Assembly (NCBI RefSeq): GCF_006345805.1
Contig: NC_043000.1
Span: 65,658,001 to 65,722,000, forward strand
DNA: 64,000 bases
Reading direction: 5' to 3'
From: Octopus sinensis
Lineage: Eukaryota
Below the pieces are notes generated by a model, which ran no database searches, had not been told where the DNA came from, and saw only the letters and a program-made list of their open reading frames with translations. Below, piece after piece: positions 2,279 through 63,627 of this stretch. Position numbers and translations under genes: made by a program. Positions within the stretch are counted from its first letter, which is position 1. Every line of letters starts with the position of its first letter.

Positions 2279-2735
2279 ATTATATATATATTATTATATA
2301 TATATATTAATTATATATACGTACATATATTAATTATATTATATATATATTATTATATATATATATTAATTATATATACGTACATATATTAATTATATAT
2401 ATATATATATAATTATATATATACGTACATATATTATTATATATATATATATTAATTATATATATATATATTATTATATATATATATATTTATTTATTTA
2501 TTTATTTATTACATATATAAATGTATATTAATTACATATACATATTAATCATATATATATATATTATATGTATACATAAATACCAATTAAGGACTGAACA
2601 CGAAAAGTGGACAGTCAACATGCTAGATATAGACGTCAAATCGCCATTCACCACAAAAGATTATGTTCTCAGATCAAACTCAGCACAAAACCATAGCAAT
2701 AAACAAGTGAAAAATATACGAAATAAAATAATTAC

Positions 2736-2799
2736 CCATGTACTAATTAGTTTCGGCTGTTATTTTCCGCAAGGAAAACTGCAGCCATCATCAGCATGG
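2736..2799 (-). ncRNA. Type I hammerhead ribozyme, left arm of cassette 2
   Basis: Reverse complement of the 3247-3308 motif with intact core. Confidence 0.85.
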
Positions 2800-3246
2800 T
2801 CCGTTATAAATGCAATTTGCTGGACTAGATGCAAACACGATACCGAAATATCGCGTGCATGGAGTTCAGCCTATTACATTTGAATATATCTTTCAAATGC
2901 CTTTACTTTGGCGCGTTGAGGCCCGAGAAAACTAGCCTGCAGCTAATAATTAGCAGCAGTCAATTTATCGGTTACAGAACATATTTATTTATATAAAATT
3001 AATTAAGGGTAGAAATTGATTAATTTTATATAATTAATATAAATAAATAATATATAAATAAATATGTTCTGTAACCGATAAATTGACTGCTGCTAATTAT
3101 TAGCTGCAGGCTAGTTTTCTCGGGCCTCAACGCGCCAAAGTAAAGGCATTTGAAAGATATATTCAAATGTAATAGGCTGAACTCCATGCACGCGATATTT
3201 CGGTATCGTGTTTGCATCTAGTCCAGCAAATTGCATTTATAACGGA

Positions 3247-3308
3247 CCATGCTGATGATGGCTGCAGTTTTCCTGCGGAAATAACAGCCGAAACTAATTA
3301 GTACATGG
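3247..3308 (+). ncRNA. Type I hammerhead ribozyme, right arm of cassette 2
   Basis: CCATG-CTGATGA-T-GGCTG..TTTCC tgc GGAAA..CAGCC-GAAA-CTAATTAG-TA/CATGG; perfect stems I and II, palindromic ACUAAUUAGU, predicted cleavage after A3303. Confidence 0.9.
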
Positions 3309-3574
3309 GTAATTATTTTATTTCGTATATTTTTCACTTGTTTATTGCTATGGTTTTGTGCTGAGTTTGATCTGAGAACATAATCTTTTGTGGAAATGGC
3401 GATTTGACGTCTATATCTAGCATGTTGACTGTCCACTTTTCGTGTTCAGTCCTTAATTGGTATATATAAATATTTTAATCTTCGGATTCTTTTTTAATAT
3501 GCTAGACCACTGGTCTTAATTGATAAATATCAATTTCTACCCTTAATTAATTGTATACATAAATATATATTAAT

Positions 3575-3920
<346 letters not shown>

Positions 3921-4065
3921 TCATAAATGAGGGCAAAGGAAAAAAATTCTAATGTCAAATATGCGAAAATTGGACATATTGTCCATTAACCATATAATTT
4001 TTTCACAATACGCACGCTACTCGAAAAAAGGTCGACAGAAATTTCTAAAAAATTCCATTATTACC

Positions 4066-4119
4066 ATATCGGGCCGATTTCAGAGTTAGCTACTAAGAGT
4101 CCTCTCTTCGTCAGTGATA
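4066..4119 (-). ncRNA. Degenerate hammerhead motif
   Basis: Minus strand TATCA-CTGACGA-AGAG..CTCT-GAAATCGGCC-CGATA; stem III/cleavage triplet mutated relative to GAAACCGGTC. Confidence 0.5.
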
Positions 4120-4310
4120 CATGTGGCAGAAGAAATAAATGAGATACTTACTCATACCCATGGAAGAAGCAAATACTAAGTCATGGGCACAACTAAGTAC
4201 CCCAAATACATCCAAAATAGAAATACTCCAGCCCATTCGAGGCACGTGCGATTTGAACTGAGGCTCTCACAGAGTGAGTTAGTTAGTTCGGAAGTGAACG
4301 CTTAAATTTA

Positions 4311-4385
4311 TATCAAATGTGAGGATAAAATTCTTTTCGAAAATTTTTTTTTTTTCCGAAAAGAATTTTATCCTCACATTTGATA
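4311..4385. repeat. Perfect ~29 bp-arm hairpin at a (TA)n edge
   Basis: TATCAAATGTGAGGATAAAATTCTTTTCG..CGAAAAGAATTTTATCCTCACATTTGATA. Confidence 0.9.
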
Positions 4386-4513
4386 TATATATATATATAT
4401 ATATATATTACACAATCTATATATATTACAGAGAACAAACACAAAAATAACAACGCGGGGATGTGGTACATATAAAGTATTAGCAGACGCTCAAGGAAAG
4501 AAAAAAAATATGC

Positions 4514-4547
4514 TTTAACGTTTCGAGCAACACTCCTCTTGAGAAAC
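4514..4547 (-). ncRNA. Degenerate minimal hammerhead of the GAGC/GCTC family
   Basis: Minus strand TTT-CTCAAGA-G-GAGT gtt GCTC-GAAACGTT-AAA; G5 mutated. Confidence 0.4.
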
Positions 4548-4674
4548 AGAAAGAGAAAAGAAGTCGGAGGAAGAATATATATATATATCAATTACACACA
4601 CACACACATACACACAGACGCACATATATATTAATTACGCACATACACACACATATATTATTTACATATATCCT

Positions 4675-7516: not shown

Positions 7517-7718
7517 AGAACGCCATGTTGAATCGTTAGCCCCTACACGTAATTTTTTTCTCTCCTTATTTCTTTTCTGTGTATCTTTCTGTCGAAGAGC
7601 GTAGGCTCGAAACGTAAAAGACTTGTTTTATTTCTATTCCTGAGCGCCATACTAATACATTATTTGTTTGTACTCCACCTGACTTCGTCTTTTGTTTATT
7701 TTCGTAAACCTTCCGTTA
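7517..7718 (+). mobile_element. Second copy of the HHR-bearing PLE-type terminal fragment, inside (TA)n
   Basis: High similarity to 950-1160. Confidence 0.7.
7584..7621 (+). ncRNA. Minimal type I hammerhead-like motif (CUGUCGA variant core)
   Basis: TCTTT-CTGTCGA-A-GAGC gtag GCTC-GAAACGTA-AAAGA. Confidence 0.65.
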
Positions 7719-27645: not shown

Positions 27646-30600
27646 CCCCGACACCAAACACCATGTACAAAGGAACTACGAAGAAATTAAATACCACCGA
27701 TATTATTCAACCCAAGAATAACAATCGGGAGGTACGTACTTTAAACTTACAACACAAAACGTACGAAAAACTACACGTGCAAAACAATGTGACAACAGAA
27801 ATGAACGGACCGGTACCCTACGAAAATGACGACCGTCAAAATAATGGGCCGGACGTTGTTCCTCATGTCCCGCAAATAAAACCCAAAAGACATAAATGGA
27901 CACGTGAGGAATACATTTCTATCCTACACGCATACTTCACAGCAATGCTCTACCCAAAAAATGAAAACACAACAACACATACATATAAAATATGGAAAGA
28001 AAATAACATAAATATAGACTTGGATACAGCAATGAACCCTAACGTACGAAGATACATTCTCAACGCAAAAAAATATCAGAAATAGAAATAGAACACCTTA
28101 AAGAAAAAATACACCAGGAAAATGTAGATAGAAGCCACACAACAATGCCCAATAATATAAAAACTGAAACAGTAAAACACGAAGACAAACGTAACATTCC
28201 CAACAAACACGATGTAAATAAAAAACAACAAACCCAGACCGTAAGGATGCATAATAATACACGACAAACAGCAAGTCAAAACACGGCAAACAAACATATA
28301 AATAAGAAAGAAAGCGACACAAATCTAAAACCTGGAAACAACGAAGGGGAGCCTAATGATTATGATAATATAAAAAGTAAAATAGTCAAAGAACTGAAAA
28401 ACCCCAGAGCTCAAAATGGACCACCGACCATACCTCCCAAAAATCAAAATAGACGAAACAACAACACCAATTATAAACAACATAAACCTAGCCGTCACGG
28501 AACTAATAGCCACTGAAACAAAAAGCGATATCACTGAGCTAAATGACTTAGTATACGCAGCAGCCACTGCAGCTACAAAAGAAGCTGGATACTCACTCAA
28601 ACCCATCCAAACAGGAGTACCACCACCCAAACAAACCTTGTGGATAAATAACATCCAAAACAAAATACAAAAAATGAGAAAAGATCTGTCGATTCTTAAT
28701 GAAATCAGAAGACAATCAACGCTACTGAGCAACAAAAAGAAAACAAAAATACTCCGCAAATATAACATCACAGAAAAAGATTTACCTGAGATAAAAGAAA
28801 AGCTGAAGCAAGATATCCTTGCCAAAGCACAAAGGATCCGCCGGTACGAGAAACGCCAGCGCTTCTTTGAACAAAACAAAAAGTTCAACTCCAACTCCAA
28901 AAAGTTCTACCAAGAACTTGGCAAAAATAAAATAGAAATCACTGCAGCACCAACGGCAGAAGAAGTGGAAGAATTCTGGAGAGAAATATGGTCGGCGAAC
29001 GAACAACAACAAAAAAAGGAGTATTAAAACAACAAACTCAGCATCTGAACAACTTTGGACCCCCATAACAACTGAAGAGGTCACCCAGGCACTGCAAAGA
29101 CTAAGCAACTGAAAGGCACCTGAGCATGACAAGATCCCCAACTTCTGGTTGAAATATCTAACAGGAATGCACAAAAAGCTGGCTGAAAACTTTAATAACA
29201 TACTGGCAGAGCCAGAGACAATGCCTGAATGGCTCACGAAGAGGAAAACCATCTTAATTCCCAAATCAAATGAGACAGCAAAACCAGAAAACTACAGACC
29301 AATAACCTGTCTCCCTACAATGTACAAGGCACTTACTTCAGTGATATCGCAAAGGTTGAACAAGCACCTGGACGAAAACAACCTGTTTCCAGAAGAGCAG
29401 AAAGGATGCCGCAAAGGCTCATATGGCTGTAAAGATCAACTAATGATTAATAAAGCCATAACTGAAGACAGCCACAGAAAGAAGAAAGGTCTCAGTATGG
29501 CCTGGATCGACTACAAAAAGGCGTTTGATAGCATCCCCCACACATGGATCCTCGAAACACTAGCCATTAACAAAGTAGCACCAACAATTATAAAATTCAT
29601 AGGGCACTCTATGAATAAATGGCAAACAGTGCTACAGCTCCAAGCAAAAGAGGGACTCATGAAAACCAAAGCCATCCCCATTAGAAGAGGAATATTCCAG
29701 GGAGACACGCTCTCTCCACTCCTTTTCTGCTTGGCACTGTCACCTCTATCTGATATGCTAAATAGAACTGGATACGGATATAAATGTTACGGCAAAACGA
29801 TCAGCTACCTTTTATATATGGATGACCTACAACTATACGCTGCAAATGACAAACAGCTGGAAACACTATTAAAGACAGTTCATGGATTTACCAAAGAAAT
29901 AGATATGAAATTTGGATTAGAAAAATGGGCCAAAGTAACCATGAAAAGAGGAAAACTAGTTAAGAGTAGCAACATCACACTAGATAAAACCAATGAAATA
30001 AAAGAATTAGACCAAAGCCAAACTTACAAATACTTAGGAATCCATGAACTAGATAAGACACAACACACACAAATGAAAGAGAAAATAAAAAAAGAATATT
30101 ATAGACGAGTTAGATCAATACTAAAAACAGAGCTCAATGCTAAAAACAAGATAATAGGTATTAACACTTTAGCTGTCCCAGTTATAAGTTACAGCTACGA
30201 TATCCTTAACTGGACACTAAATGAACTGACCAAAATAGATAGGAAAACAAGAGAAATATGACAGGATCTAGGATGCATCACCCAAAATCTGACATAGAAA
30301 GACTATATATACAACGTATAGAAGGTGTAGAGGCCTTATACAGCTGGAAAACTACTATAAAATAACCACCATAGGACTGCAAAAAATATCTACTTCAGAA
30401 GGAAGGAAAACTGATACAAATAGCGGCAAAACACGAGCAAAACAAAAACTGTTCTCAGTATTTAAGGAAGCTGACAAATACAAACAAGAAATCATACCAC
30501 CTAATAAATAAGAAGAAGAAGAAGAAGAAGAGAAGAAGAAGAAGAAGAAGAGAAGAAGAAGAAGAAGAAGAAAAGAAGAAGAAGAAGAAGAAGAAGAAGA

Positions 30601-31561
30601 AGAAGAAGAAGAAGAAGAAAAGAAGAAGAAAAACAACAAAAGCTATAAAACAAATGAAATCCAAACTAAAAATAGAACAGCAACGAACCATGCTAAAACG
30701 ATGGCAAGAAAAGCCCCTTCATGGTAAATACTGGACTAAACAAATCGCAAAAGAAATAGACAAAGAAAAATCCCAGCAATGGTTGAGAAGCTCAGGACTC
30801 AAAGCAGAGACAGAGGGGTTTTTAATTGCAGCACAAGACCAAAGCCTTCCCACCAGAAATTACCAAAAACATGTAATGAAAAGAAATATAACAAGTAACT
30901 GCAGAATATGTGGAGATGGACAAGAAACAATAAATCATATTATCTCTGGCTGCCCAGTCCTGGCTAAGAAGGAATATATTCACAGACATGACAGAGTTGG
31001 AACCTACATACACTGGAAGTTATGCCAATATTATGGAATAACAACAGAAAAAAGATGGTATAGGCACACACCAGAAAAGGTCACAGAAAACGAGAAAGCA
31101 ACCATACTCTGGGATATGCCGATACACACAGATAGAGAAATTAAGGCCAACAGACCAGATATAGTTGTCAGAGATCATGAAGAAAAAAATGCTTTCTAAT
31201 TGGTGTATCAATACCGGCAGATGACAACGTATCTCTAAAAGAAATGGAGAAACTTTCAAAATACAAAGACCTGGAAATAGAGGTAACCAGAATGTGGAAT
31301 CTAAAAACAGAAACAATTCCTATCATAGTAGGTGCATTAGGCATGATAAAAAAATATTCAGACAAATACAAACAAAAAACACCAGGACTTACAACACATA
31401 TAACATACAGAAAATTGCACTACTAGGCACTGCACACATCCTACGCAGAACACTTTCCATACAATAACCATCAGAGCATCACAACAAATTACAGCACATA
31501 CCTAAGGCACAGAGAGCTGCGCTCGGTAGTGAAGTGAAAGCACGCTATAAAAATAAAACTA

Positions 31562-31564
<3 letters not shown>
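27646..31564 (+). mobile_element. R4/Dong-type non-LTR retrotransposon (RT + CCHC + restriction-like endonuclease), near full-length, frameshifted
   Basis: KWTREE N-terminal motif; YRPITCL, WIDYKKAFDS, QGDTLSPLLF, YMDD; CRICG..H...GC; RHD; RPDIVVRD; flanked both sides by (TAA)n. Confidence 0.93.
30510..30632 (+). repeat. (GAA)n tract inside the LINE coding region
   Basis: About 40 GAA-like units between RT thumb and Zn-knuckle coding segments. Confidence 0.95.
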
Positions 31565-31610
<46 letters not shown>

Positions 31611-31620
31611 TTAATAATAA

Positions 31621-32727
31621 CGAAAGAAGCTTCATTCTATCATCAAGGAAAGCAAAAAATTTGCTATTGATCTCGTGCAGGATACCCAAACTGAACAACC
31701 CGAGGGAAGTACGGCAACTATTGTTGCAAAGAAGGTGAAAATGATGGCAATGAAAAAAGCGCACGAGCAATTGGCTGATAGGTGGGAGGAGAAACCTCTG
31801 CACGGCAAATATGTGACCCTCAGCAAACAAGCTGATGTTGACCAGAAGCAAACCCATCAGTGGCTGCGGAGCTCAGGGCTAAAAGCAGAGAGCGAAGGTT
31901 TCATCCTGGCTGCTCAAGACCAAAGCCTATCAACCCGGAACTACCAGGCCAATGTGATGAAAAATGAGCAGACCCAAAATGCCGATTCTGCAACGACATG
32001 ATTGAAACAGTGGACCACCTAATCTCTGGATGTAAAGTCTTAGCACCAGTGGAGTATAAATTAAGACATGACAGAGTTGGCCAATATCTCCACTGGCTAA
32101 TAAGTCGGCATTACAATATCAAAACTGCCGACAAGTGGTATAATCACCACCCTGAGGCTGTAACTGAAGGAGAAAATGTAACCATTCTGTGGGACTTTCC
32201 AGTACATACAGACCGAACCATCAAGGCCAATAAACCAGATATTGTTGTGAAAGACCAAAACAATAAAGTTTGCTTATTGATCGACATGAGCATCCCCTGT
32301 GATCATAATATCTCAGCGAAAGAGTTTGACAAGCTCAGAAAATATAAAGACCTACTCATTGAATTGAGAAAATGTGGCATCTCAAGGCGGTTACAATACC
32401 AGTGATCGTAGGAGCACTAGGAATGATCAAGAAGGGAACCGAAATTATATGAGAATGATCCCTGGCTTACCATCCCTGCAAGAAGTGCAAAAGATTGTCT
32501 TAACTGGTACATCACACGTATTGAGAAGAGCATTGTCGATGTGAGAGCTGTTGCTGCTCATGCATTTTAATTTAACTTTAAAAAAAATAAAAATAAAAAA
32601 ATAAAAAAATTAACGAACTACTGAGTTTGGTTTAATGGCCTACCAATACACACTATGAGTTTCTTTGCCCTAGGAGTCGGGAAGACACTCGGCAAGAAAT
32701 GGAAGAAAATTTGAAAGAAGAAAAAAA
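31621..32727 (+). mobile_element. Second, 5'-truncated R4/Dong-type LINE of a different subfamily
   Basis: KPLHGKY, GLKAESEGFILAAQDQ, HLISGC..RHD, KPDIVVKD; (TAA)n on both sides; distinct 3' UTR. Confidence 0.9.
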
Positions 32728-35374: not shown

Positions 35375-36692
35375 ATGCACATGTAATGTACTTAAAAGGT
35401 ACACACAATTGTTATTTAATTTTTAAAATTTTAATTACATGTAACTTCAAAAAATTTAATGTTGAAAGGTAAAAATCCTATTGAATATCATATTTAATTA
35501 TGAACTAAGTAAATTAGAAGTGAGCTTGTCCATGTTACTTTCATGTACTTATGTAAATATCAAAATGTATTTCTCAAAGTATATTTTGATTAACGGCAAT
35601 TAATTCTGTGCGAGTCCTTTTAAAAACAATTTGTTTCATTCCTTTAAAACATGTTATAACCAATTGGTTATAAACAACTAATTTTGGCTGGAATGTTTGC
35701 ATAATAGTTAGAGCGTTGTTGAAATGCCTTACAGCATTTCTTCATGCTCGCTGAATTCAAATCTCACCGAGACCAATATCTACCACTTAATCTATCTCAT
35801 AAAACACTAACAGATTAAGCATCTAGAACAGCTAAATATTTGATGCATTTATTTTAATGGCATTCCCAATATGCTACATTGAAGATTTCTCAATGGTCAG
35901 TTAGCGCGTAAATATATAGATATATTATTTTCTTTTACTCTACTCAAGGTCATGTAATGCAGTGGAAGACTTTTACTAGATCAGTTCGATCTAAATAGTA
36001 TCACTGGCACAAAATTAATTTAGTGGAACACACAATAACTACCATTTAAATTTAAAGTAAGATAAACCTACAGTTACAGACTTCAGGAAGAAATTCAACA
36101 TAATGGATACTGCAACAAACGTAGCTGAGACATAGAATGAATTGAAAACCTCAATTTTGAATGATGCTTAGAAAAATATATTGCCTGACTGCCTTCGTGA
36201 CTTTACAAGTTTTCTACAAGCTGTTAAGAACAAGAGCAAGCTGAGAATATAGATGACAGTGCGGAAAATTTATCAACTCCACTTAAACTAAGCTAACAGA
36301 ACATTGCTAAGGGTTGGCACTTATAGAGGAAGTTCTGCAAGTTATTGCTGATAGGAGACCTAATCGTGTATATAACATGAAATTATTGAAAAAGGAATTT
36401 ACAATGAAATGTTCCTACACTGAAGAGCTGACACACTGTAAACAATACTCAAGTAGATGTTCATGATGATGGACTATAAGATAAGAGGCAGTGTCCTTCT
36501 TGCTCCCAGTAACCACTCATTCCACTCCCCTCCCTCAAACAGTTGTCAACCTCTTTTGTGGTAAGAACGTACTCTGTTATGATATGATTCTTCTATATTC
36601 TTAACGTATTTCTCATCGAATGCTTTTATATATATATATGAAAAAACAAGTCAAAAATAGAAAATGCTAAGATAATTTTATAGTGAATCTTT

Positions 36693-36730
36693 CAGTACCG
36701 GTTTCGGTCATTTGGAGACCTTTTCAACTG
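36693..36730 (-). ncRNA. Minimal hammerhead with U3-A8 core, left arm of cassette 5
   Basis: Minus strand CAG-TTGAAAA-GGTC tccaaat GACC-GAAA-CCGG-TA/CTG; palindromic ACCGGU. Confidence 0.75.
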
Positions 36731-36901
36731 TAACGATTAAATAATTAAATTTAGAAAAATTAGAAGAAAAGTTTTTTTAAAAGAATATTTCTGTAGTAGT
36801 GTTCAGATATAAGTAGCATTCTGCCTTTCACTGACTCCCTTGTTTGCACTTTTAAAAAAACTTTTCTTCTAATTTTTCAAAATTTAATTATTTAATCGTT
36901 A

Positions 36902-36939
36902 CAGTTGAAAAGGTCTCAAAATGACCGAAGCCGGTACTG
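36902..36939 (+). ncRNA. Minimal hammerhead with U3-A8 core, right arm (A15.1 to G)
   Basis: CAG-TTGAAAA-GGTC tcaaaat GACC-GAAG-CCGG-TA/CTG. Confidence 0.6.
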
Positions 36940-37034
36940 AAAGATACACTATAAAATTATCTTAGCATTTTCTATTTTTGACTTGTTTTTTCATATATAT
37001 CAACTCGTGTGTTCCTTTCCACCCTTATACATAT

Positions 37035-37074
<40 letters not shown>

Positions 37075-37076
37075 CA

Positions 37077-37110
<34 letters not shown>

Positions 37111-37290
37111 CATATATCATAATAATATATATATATAATAATATATACATATATATATAAAATTATATATATATATATATATATATTTTATAATATAATA
37201 TTTTTTAACCAAACGGAAACAAAAAACAACAACAATGGAACAATTACAGTATTATTATTAATAGGCGCTCAGGAAAAGGAAGCAGGGAGG

Positions 37291-37327
37291 TATGACGTTT
37301 CGAGCGGAGCTCTTCGTCGGAAACATA
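37291..37327 (-). ncRNA. Minimal hammerhead-like motif, GAGC/GCTC family
   Basis: Minus strand CCGACGA-A-GAGC tcc GCTC-GAAACGTC; U4 to C, stem I irregular. Confidence 0.45.
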
Positions 37328-38049
37328 AAGAAGGAAGAGAGAGGAAAGAAAGATCCAGAGCGGGCAACAGGGAAAGAGAAAAAGACGACTGGTGTTTACG
37401 AGTTGCACATGGTGAAAGGCGGATGTTTACGAAAACAGAGCAAAGTGGGTTTTTAAAGGCAAAAGAGTGGAGACAAGGTTGGTAACGCAGCAGAGGTGTG
37501 TGTATGTGTGAGTGTGTGCGTGTGCGTGTGTGTATGTGTGTGTGTGAGGCGAGATGAAAAAACAAAAAATATATATGTGTGTGTTAGTGTGTGCGTCTGT
37601 GTGTAGGCGTGTGAGGTAGGGCGAGATAGTGGTCAGCTTAGCAGACAAAGGTCAGTAGTAAGAAAAAGAAGGAAGGAGGAAGGGAGGGAGGGGAAGGGGT
37701 GGGGCGTATGTAGCGTGCCAGCGTGTGTTGAGTAGTAGTGTGTGTGTGTGTCCAGTGTCGTGGTGGTATAAATGGCGAGTAGATTGAATGTGTGTAAGAG
37801 TAATGTATATATTTAAGCAATGTGTGTATATGTGTGCGCGTGTGTGTAACGGAAAAGGGGGGGGGTTAAGGAGAAAGGACTCCAGCTGAGGGGAAGATGG
37901 AAGAGTGGTCCCGCGGAGGCGGACGTGAGAAAACCCAACGACACGCGACGGTCCCAGGGACGGGCGGGAGGTCTTGTCGGTTCCAAGAGCGAGGTGCCTG
38001 CGGAGCGTATGCGTACGCGAACCGGCGCAAGCGCGTGCGTGCGCGAGCC

Positions 38050-39550: not shown

Positions 39551-39899
39551 TACGCACGCGCACATCCGAAGCAAGCCCACACACACGAAGCGCGCCCCCA
39601 CGCACAACGCCACTCAGTACAACGCAAGCCCAGGGGCCGACCAAGCCCCCAGCGCGCGCCAAGGCGCGCGAGCGCAAAGGCCCTCGAACGCCCCGCTACG
39701 CGGGAACCGAGGATCCATCAGCCAAAACCGGAAAGCAGAAAAGAGGGGGTGCTGCCTGGATGCAAAAAGGTGTATGTGTGTGTGCATTCAGTGTAAGGGT
39801 GTGCATGTGTAGGTATGTATGTATGTAATGCATATATATACATACATACATACATACATATATATATATACACACACACAAACACACACATATATATAT

Positions 39900-63417: not shown

Positions 63418-63526
63418 AATATAGTTAATCCAAACATGAAAACACAAAGAGAAAACACAACAACACGAGGACGTGGAACAAGTATAGTGTTATTGGACGC
63501 TCAGGAAAGGAAAGAAAGAAGGAGGC

Positions 63527-63559
63527 TTTAACGCTTCGAGCGGAGCTCTTCGTCAGAAA
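63527..63559 (-). ncRNA. Minimal hammerhead-like motif, GAGC/GCTC family
   Basis: Minus strand TTT-CTGACGA-A-GAGC tcc GCTC-GAAGCGTT-AAA; canonical CUGACGA, A15.1 to G. Confidence 0.55.
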
Positions 63560-63627
63560 CATATAAAAAGGAAAGATTCAAGGAAGGGAAGACGGAGGAA
63601 AAAAATCGCCAACGATACACACGCGGT

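Follow-up and report, generated by a model that had tools for sequence, protein, structure and literature searches.

Head-to-head copies of an abundant repeat in Octopus sinensis, likely the end of a Penelope-like retrotransposon, with U3-A8 type I hammerhead motifs predicted to be weak and dimer-dependent

In several natural hammerheads the C3-G8 pair of the core has covaried to U3-A8, the first natural report being that of Perreault 2011 (PMC3088659), where it is also noted that U3-A8 hammerheads had previously been shown to be active in vitro. The swap itself is not new: it has been known from nature since 2011 and from Penelope-like elements since 2014, when Cervera and de la Pena (PMC4209133) obtained about 1,300 U3-A8 hits in the Cercyon Penelope-like elements of S. 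mansoni with an adapted descriptor, and described dual motifs in S. mansoni that lie on opposite strands 100-700 bp apart. Penelope hammerheads are explained by a dimer model, and their measured activity is low even as dimers (PMC4209133; dimer review PMC6765202). Penelope-like elements also leave inverted 5'-truncated copies with a 30-40-bp tail at one end, and some of their clades show a bias toward (TA)n targets (Craig 2021, PMC8557442). The 56-row hammerhead alignment of PMC4209133 includes no cephalopod, and its two molluscs have C3-G8.

The locus described here lies in a window of 64,000 nucleotides of Octopus sinensis (the whole stretch of DNA that was analysed), rich in AT and of animal type, in which microsatellites and remnants of retrotransposons occur. 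A 152-nt inverted repeat, with arms at 36632-36783 (minus) and 36849-37000 (plus) that differ at four letters, contains in each arm a type I hammerhead in which U3-A8 replaces C3-G8. We consider it probable that the locus is made up of two short copies, back to back, of one repeat of very high abundance, which is likely the truncated end of a retrotransposon of the Penelope-like kind; both copies contain a type I hammerhead whose U3-A8 is fixed in the family and for which weak cleavage, in the dimer only, is predicted. Its features are as follows.

36627..36639, no strand: (TA)n run at the left end, a likely insertion target that overlaps the 3' end of the left copy (from the sequence and the rise in depth)
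36632..36848, minus strand: left copy, 217 nt, the 5'-truncated 3' end of a high-copy repeat, with the 65-nt 'spacer' as its own 5' part
36693..36730, minus strand: left type I hammerhead, with U3 at 36727, A8 at 36722, G10.1-C11.1, G12-A13-A14, A15.1 at 36702, palindromic stem III CCGG, U16.1 and A17 at 36696; predicted cut between 36696 and 36695
36848..36849, no strand: point at which the two truncated copies meet 5' to 5' (head-to-head), a junction that probably exists only in this insertion
36849..37000, plus strand: right copy of 152 nt with 97% identity to the left one; it has letters private to it at 36879, 36930 and 36946
36902..36939, plus strand: right type I hammerhead, with U3 at 36905, A8 at 36910, a private A15.1G at 36930 and A17 at 36936
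37001..37030, plus strand: one-sided 'tail' of about 30 nt, likely part of the element, recurring as a contig loose end in run X4
37031..37190, no strand: (TA)n microsatellite at the right end, a likely insertion target (from the sequence)

Read on the minus strand from 36730 to 36693, the left hammerhead is CAG UUGAAAA GGUC UCCAAAU GACC GAAA CCGG UA CUG, and the right one, on the plus strand from 36902 to 36939, has the same letters except for the loop UCAAAAU and GAAG. The left loop-2 C at 36714 is private, the family letter there being A (99% in the contigs of four runs). Within the core N3-U4-G5-A6-N7-N8-A9 the required Watson-Crick pair of positions 3 and 8 is U3-A8 in both arms; G12-A13-A14 and the G10.1-C11.1 pair that opens helix II are likewise present in both, and A15.1-U16.1 is present in the left arm and the family, with G15.1 in the right arm alone. 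Helix I has 3 bp and an open end, helix II has 4 bp, and helix III reaches 6 bp only between two molecules. By sequence definition the left arm and the family are type I hammerheads, cleavage being a prediction; the compensatory U3-A8 pair in a type I fold, which the first-pass annotation had proposed, was confirmed base by base in both arms.

The closest described motifs are Penelope-associated. The S. mansoni(4) row of the 56-row alignment has the heptamer UUGAAAA, identical to that of the octopus family, and the Cercyon U3-A8 hammerheads further share with it the type I arrangement, a short helix I, opposite-strand pairs and a dimer-dependent design (PMC4209133). Unlike S. mansoni Cercyon, the octopus family has no base after A9, a helix II of 4 bp (6 bp in S. 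mansoni(4)), a CCGG palindrome and A17. The three U3 rows of the alignment have U, G and U at position 17, thus A in 0/3, which are too few for a rule, and A17 occurs in six C3 rows (PMC4209133). In shape the closest row is the Penelope hammerhead of Marsupenaeus japonicus (Fig. S3, PMC4209133), which shares the lack of a base between A9 and 10.1, the 4-bp helix II, a 4-nt helix III palindrome and UA at 16.1/17, but differs in its canonical C3-G8 (CUGAUGA) and its helix I of 5 bp. The variants of Perreault 2011, unlike this family, were apparently not tied to a high-copy animal repeat in that report (PMC3088659). No report of this family was found in the literature search, beyond which lay Lunse et al. 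2017 (on Penelope hammerhead dimers, and possibly listing U3-A8/A17) as well as the supplementary material, possibly relevant here, to Perreault 2011 and Craig 2021; the main text of the O. vulgaris repeat annotation (PMC13282606) has no mention of hammerhead or ribozyme.

How far the motif is a property of the family was read from contigs assembled from 4 of the 23 public runs listed (four coded organisms, three studies), aligned on 36560-36848 with thresholds of 80% likeness and 2% letter share (2813, 905, 861 and 468 records aligned). None of the listed runs was of RNA. A contig survey of this kind loses rare variants, leaves letters unphased and is blind below 80% likeness, hence also to any C3-G8 sister families. 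Across the element the contig depths add up to about 1e5-9e5, compared with 3-180 on the flank, in 4/4 runs, and in run X1 the sum climbs from about 150 to more than 500,000 across 36620-36639. Relative to a unique-flank contig the depth is about 17,600-fold in X1 and about 42,000-fold in X2, ratios that are not a copy number; as a rough figure, the repeat family is very abundant, on the order of 10^4 copies.

Fifteen positions of 36560-36848 have an alternative letter at 2% or more in the four runs. No other letter reaches that share at position 3 (36727), 8 (36722), 15.1 (36702) or 17 (36696) in 4/4 runs, and because none does so at 3 or 8, U3-A8 is the family state; a family consensus of CUGANGA, which the first-pass annotation had named as the contrary case, did not occur. 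The covariation at 3 and 8 that it had proposed to look for is visible only between families, the per-position letter shares giving no 3/8 variation within this one. C11.1 is the only core base with a family variant (C to U, at 2-7%, the G-U pair being kept), and inside the hammerhead the variant rows are C11.1U and the loop base 36714 only, the window letter at the latter being private. Diverged relatives with another 5' flank retain U3-U4-G5 (loose-end consensus at 36750 in X1, X2 and X9). The A15.1G of the right arm is private and reads as neutral decay; mutants at 15.1 and 16.1 were at least 10-fold slower (Perreault 2011, PMC3088659), in agreement with the earlier suspicion that this arm may be dead.

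The variant rows are also strand-biased, with seven G>A and no C>T on the plus strand, equivalent to C to U in the sense of the hammerhead, and this holds within the motif as well as beyond it. The reading of this bias as a sign of G12A being purged and C11.1U tolerated was rejected, because the same asymmetry is found outside the hammerhead.

At all 10 of the 10 family-polymorphic sites that fall within the arm, the two arms have the identical letter, and the shared letters at 36671, 36688, 36689 and 36763 are the minority in most runs. The four differences between the arms are all private, one on the left and three on the right (A15.1G among them); the right-arm positions 36879, 36930 and 36946 correspond to 36753, 36702 and 36686 of the left arm, where the family has no variant row. 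Since the arms agree at 10/10 polymorphic sites, they represent one template and one observation, and the earlier argument that a double change in both arms speaks for selection is not supported, the arms not being independent. The hammerhead, which makes up 38 of the 217 nt, holds 1 of 12 variant sites, no significant depletion (P=0.35); this weak test used 12 of the 15 variant rows, those at 36714, 36793 and 36815 having been dropped as the window letter there is private. A function in the ancestor is indicated by the matched double change, which sits in a core that is canonical in other respects. When the window was scanned with a relaxed descriptor open to all 16 letter pairs at 3/8, six sites were recovered, all of them Watson-Crick (four C-G, two U-A); these six hammerhead-shaped sites represent four independent loci, and 6/6 Watson-Crick pairs despite 16 allowed combinations again points to ancestral function.

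What such a function would look like is suggested by folding. The monomer is unable to close helix III, and its hammerhead fold for that reason has a probability of about 1e-7. When two copies are folded together, the minimum-energy structure is, unprompted, a dimer with a 6-bp ACCGGU stem III at -22.9 kcal/mol, which matches the published Penelope dimer model, and the whole-locus hairpin is worth about -220 kcal/mol on either strand. In the mechanism proposed here, RNA of a master element would carry the hammerhead, cut after A17, about 64 nt from its 3' end, and in a tandem transcript two motifs would pair through the self-complementary ACCGGU to give a 6-bp intermolecular stem III, with U3-A8 replacing C3-G8 as the tertiary core pair. 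Cleavage after A17 would then release or circularise a unit-length RNA, by analogy with Cervera and de la Pena 2014, and a putative Penelope-type RT/GIY-YIG protein would write the 217-nt copy, the inverted 152-nt copy and the tail into a TA microsatellite in one event. On this modelling the family motif is likely a weak, dimer-dependent ribozyme. The genomic copy is likely inert, because its motifs are on opposite strands, a read-through transcript would bury the motif in a 152-bp hairpin, and A15.1 is lost on the right.

The residue at the cleavage site, whose complementarity to U3 was not remarked in the first-pass annotation, complicates this model. A17 fits the NUH rule, and U3-A17 pairing would extend helix I over the cleavage site; in ViennaRNA calculations that ignore the energy of the tertiary core, the monomer forms this pair with a probability of 0.73 and each core of the dimer with one of 0.44, and the pair is worth about 1.1 kcal/mol per core. 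U3-A17 would thus compete with U3-A8 and likely lower the extent of cleavage. The impairment of minimal hammerheads by G17 has been proposed to come from a C3-G17 pair, and G17 is reported to make a G3-C8 variant more active than C17 does (Kalweit and Hammann 2013, PMC3884650); the U3-A17 of the octopus family is the analogue of this inhibitory C3-G17 trap. The literature search found no instance of U3-A17 in connection with a hammerhead. As modelled, the pair could mean that the motif is trapped, attenuated or dead.

The first alternative to be weighed accepts the same origin and holds that the family hammerhead is dead or nearly so, owing to the U3-A17 trap and the 3-bp helix I, and that the motif is a one-founder fossil or a structural signal that spread without cleavage. 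The U3-A17 pair is indeed in the minimum-energy fold of both monomer and dimer, its C3-G17 analogue strongly impairs minimal hammerheads (PMC3884650), variant sites show no depletion within the motif, Naiad elements lack canonical hammerheads and yet amplify (PMC8557442), and Penelope minimal hammerheads show low activity in vitro, even as dimers (PMC4209133). Yet an A-U trap of about 1.1 kcal/mol per core is weaker than a G-C one, and G17 variants still cleave when given helpful tertiary contacts (PMC3884650); furthermore, U3-A8 requires two matched changes, and the remaining core bases are all canonical, with less than 2% variants in four runs except for C11.1U at 2-7%. We regard a dead family motif as unlikely. 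A self-braking core fixed in the family, in which U3 would belong both to a catalytic U3-A8 and to an inhibitory U3-A17 pair and the motif would stay off until dimerisation or a protein flips it, is a tentative suggestion that is itself rather doubtful.

Membership in the Penelope-like elements is argued from layout and motif, with no part played by any ORF. An inverted 5'-truncated copy adjoins the other at its 5' end between 36848 and 36849, a tail of the 30-40-bp kind occurs at one end together with a (TA)n target, and a terminal-repeat hammerhead with minimal or palindromic helix III is present (ACCGGU, with its dimer fold). The extra nucleotide between A9 and 10.1 that belongs to the Penelope minimal hammerhead consensus (Cervera 2014) is absent, as it also is in 2 of 56 published rows, those of M. 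japonicus and S. kowalevskii(2) (PMC4209133). Pfam searches gave no GIY-YIG match in 62 frames near hammerhead sites (of 288 candidates) or in 10 long frames; the left copy has a 28-aa frame at its 5' end, which had no Pfam match of any kind. No RT linked to the family was found, the sole RT match (29113-30258) lying 6 kb away and having no DNA in common with the repeat.

That match belongs to a broken non-LTR retrotransposon at 29113-32405, with RVT_1 at 29113-30258 (E 9e-34) and zf-RVT at 30654-31196; a second, similar C-terminal non-LTR remnant is found at 31621-32405. Within the family itself, 36763-36848 (minus) and a sister subfamily with loose ends at 36790-36797 could encode a degenerate C-terminal endonuclease piece, which has no Pfam match; the translation has what we take to be a likeness to the endonuclease motif Cys-x-Leu-Cys-Leu-Asn.

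A non-autonomous repeat of the non-LTR retrozyme type, with a canonical-like type I motif and a circular RNA intermediate, is a second candidate in place of an autonomous Penelope end, although an improbable one. Retrozymes share with the octopus family the type I arrangement, a 4-bp helix II, a short palindromic helix III, high copy number and non-coding character (Cervera 2020, PMC7229834), and the 4-bp helix II with its A-rich 7-nt loop, the lack of a base between A9 and 10.1, the very high copy number without a visible coding frame and the best Rfam match, to Hammerhead_HH9 (RF02275), all agree with this alternative. They are, however, defined by head-to-tail tandem repeats and have a 6-bp helix I with loop 1-loop 2 contacts (PMC7229834), whereas the octopus locus is head-to-head with a tail, and has a helix I of 3 bp, and no joint going back is listed in four runs; relative to RF02275, helix I here is 4 bp shorter and the core has U3-A8. 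On the argument of a 2026 preprint, retrozymes would descend from Penelope ends in any event (10.64898/2026.07.22.740005).

The same inverted repeat could be taken for a DNA element of MITE or foldback type, inserted at TA and bounded by terminal inverted repeats of 152 nt, the hammerhead likeness being a passenger, as the long and near-perfect inverted repeat, the TA at both ends and the lack of a coding frame would allow. Such an element would be expected to give a family-wide spacer-to-right-arm junction in the form of a strand-changing joint, but no strand-changing joint is listed in 4/4 runs, an absence from contigs that is not proof. The boundary between the left arm and the 'spacer' is moreover bridged at full depth, with depth unbroken across it and pieces 8, 16, 24 and 32 spanning 36783/36784; the 65-nt 'spacer' belongs to the family and continues the left arm in the 5' direction. 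Since the 'spacer' is family-wide and no strand-changing joint is listed, a 217-nt and a 152-nt copy are joined 5' to 5' between 36848 and 36849. The 3' ends of both copies sit in TA runs, and the ends are asymmetric, with a tail on one side: the reverse complement of 37001-37030, with one difference in 20 letters, hangs off 36632 in four contigs of X4 (1/4 runs). A foldback element is on these grounds very improbable, and the arrangement agrees with the Penelope-like reading preferred here.

Chance likeness to a hammerhead is scarcely credible: although Rfam scores are below the cut-off and the fold z-scores of the single arms are not significant (-0.15 and -0.98), a strict type I descriptor (G10.1-C11.1, GAAA, palindromic stem III) had no match in 60 block-wise dinucleotide shuffles of the window, the same heptamer is published in a Penelope element (PMC4209133), and the palindromic stem III yields the dimer fold unprompted. 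The relaxed descriptor gave 0.083 U-A sites per shuffle. As the first-pass annotation had expected, standard searches miss the motif, with no Rfam match at gathering score across the whole window; Hammerhead_HH9, the best Rfam hammerhead match, is weak (19.5 bits on the left and 15.2 on the right, against a gathering score of 52). Viral contigs searched with the family motif and metagenome contigs searched with the strict motif gave no matches. A looser motif returned 18 metagenome loci, none of which ends in CCGG-UA-CUG as the family does, and these were set aside as chance or coding sequence.

Other hammerhead-bearing repeats occur in the window. A second head-to-head pair of the same layout occupies 2571-3560, with arms at 2571-3004 and 3042-3472 (about 430 nt, 98% identical) and canonical CUGAUGA type I hammerheads at 2794(-) and 3252(+) whose A9 is followed by an additional U and whose helix II is long; a stretch of about 29 nt from the right end of the pair (3529-3557) is found again, in inverted orientation, at the central junction (2992-3020). 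In the region 4050-4420 (minus), a short inverted repeat at about 4303-4393 is followed downstream by a canonical type I hammerhead, CUGACGA, at 4114(-); this is likely a third Penelope-type family. A fourth hammerhead-bearing repeat at 63505-63570 (minus) has a CUGACGA core at 63556(-) with G15.1; its 73%-identical copy at 37221-37336 (minus), 220 nt to the right of the main locus, has the core CCGACGA at 37320(-) (U4C), and further decayed copies were found by blastn at 4435-4561, 7582-7646 and 980-1107. Two GC-rich, non-repetitive islands at 37860-38030 and 39600-39800, within a long (CA/TG)n tract, are possibly the ends of another repeat family.

With the octopus repeat, U3-A8 hammerheads of very high copy number extend to a further animal lineage, in a family that is missed by Rfam and by CUGANGA descriptors and that sits beside canonical C3-G8 families in the same 64 kb. 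If the suggestion of a self-braking core were true, its presence in tens of thousands of copies would provide a natural test of whether selection on Penelope hammerheads acts for low, gated cleavage or for shape only.
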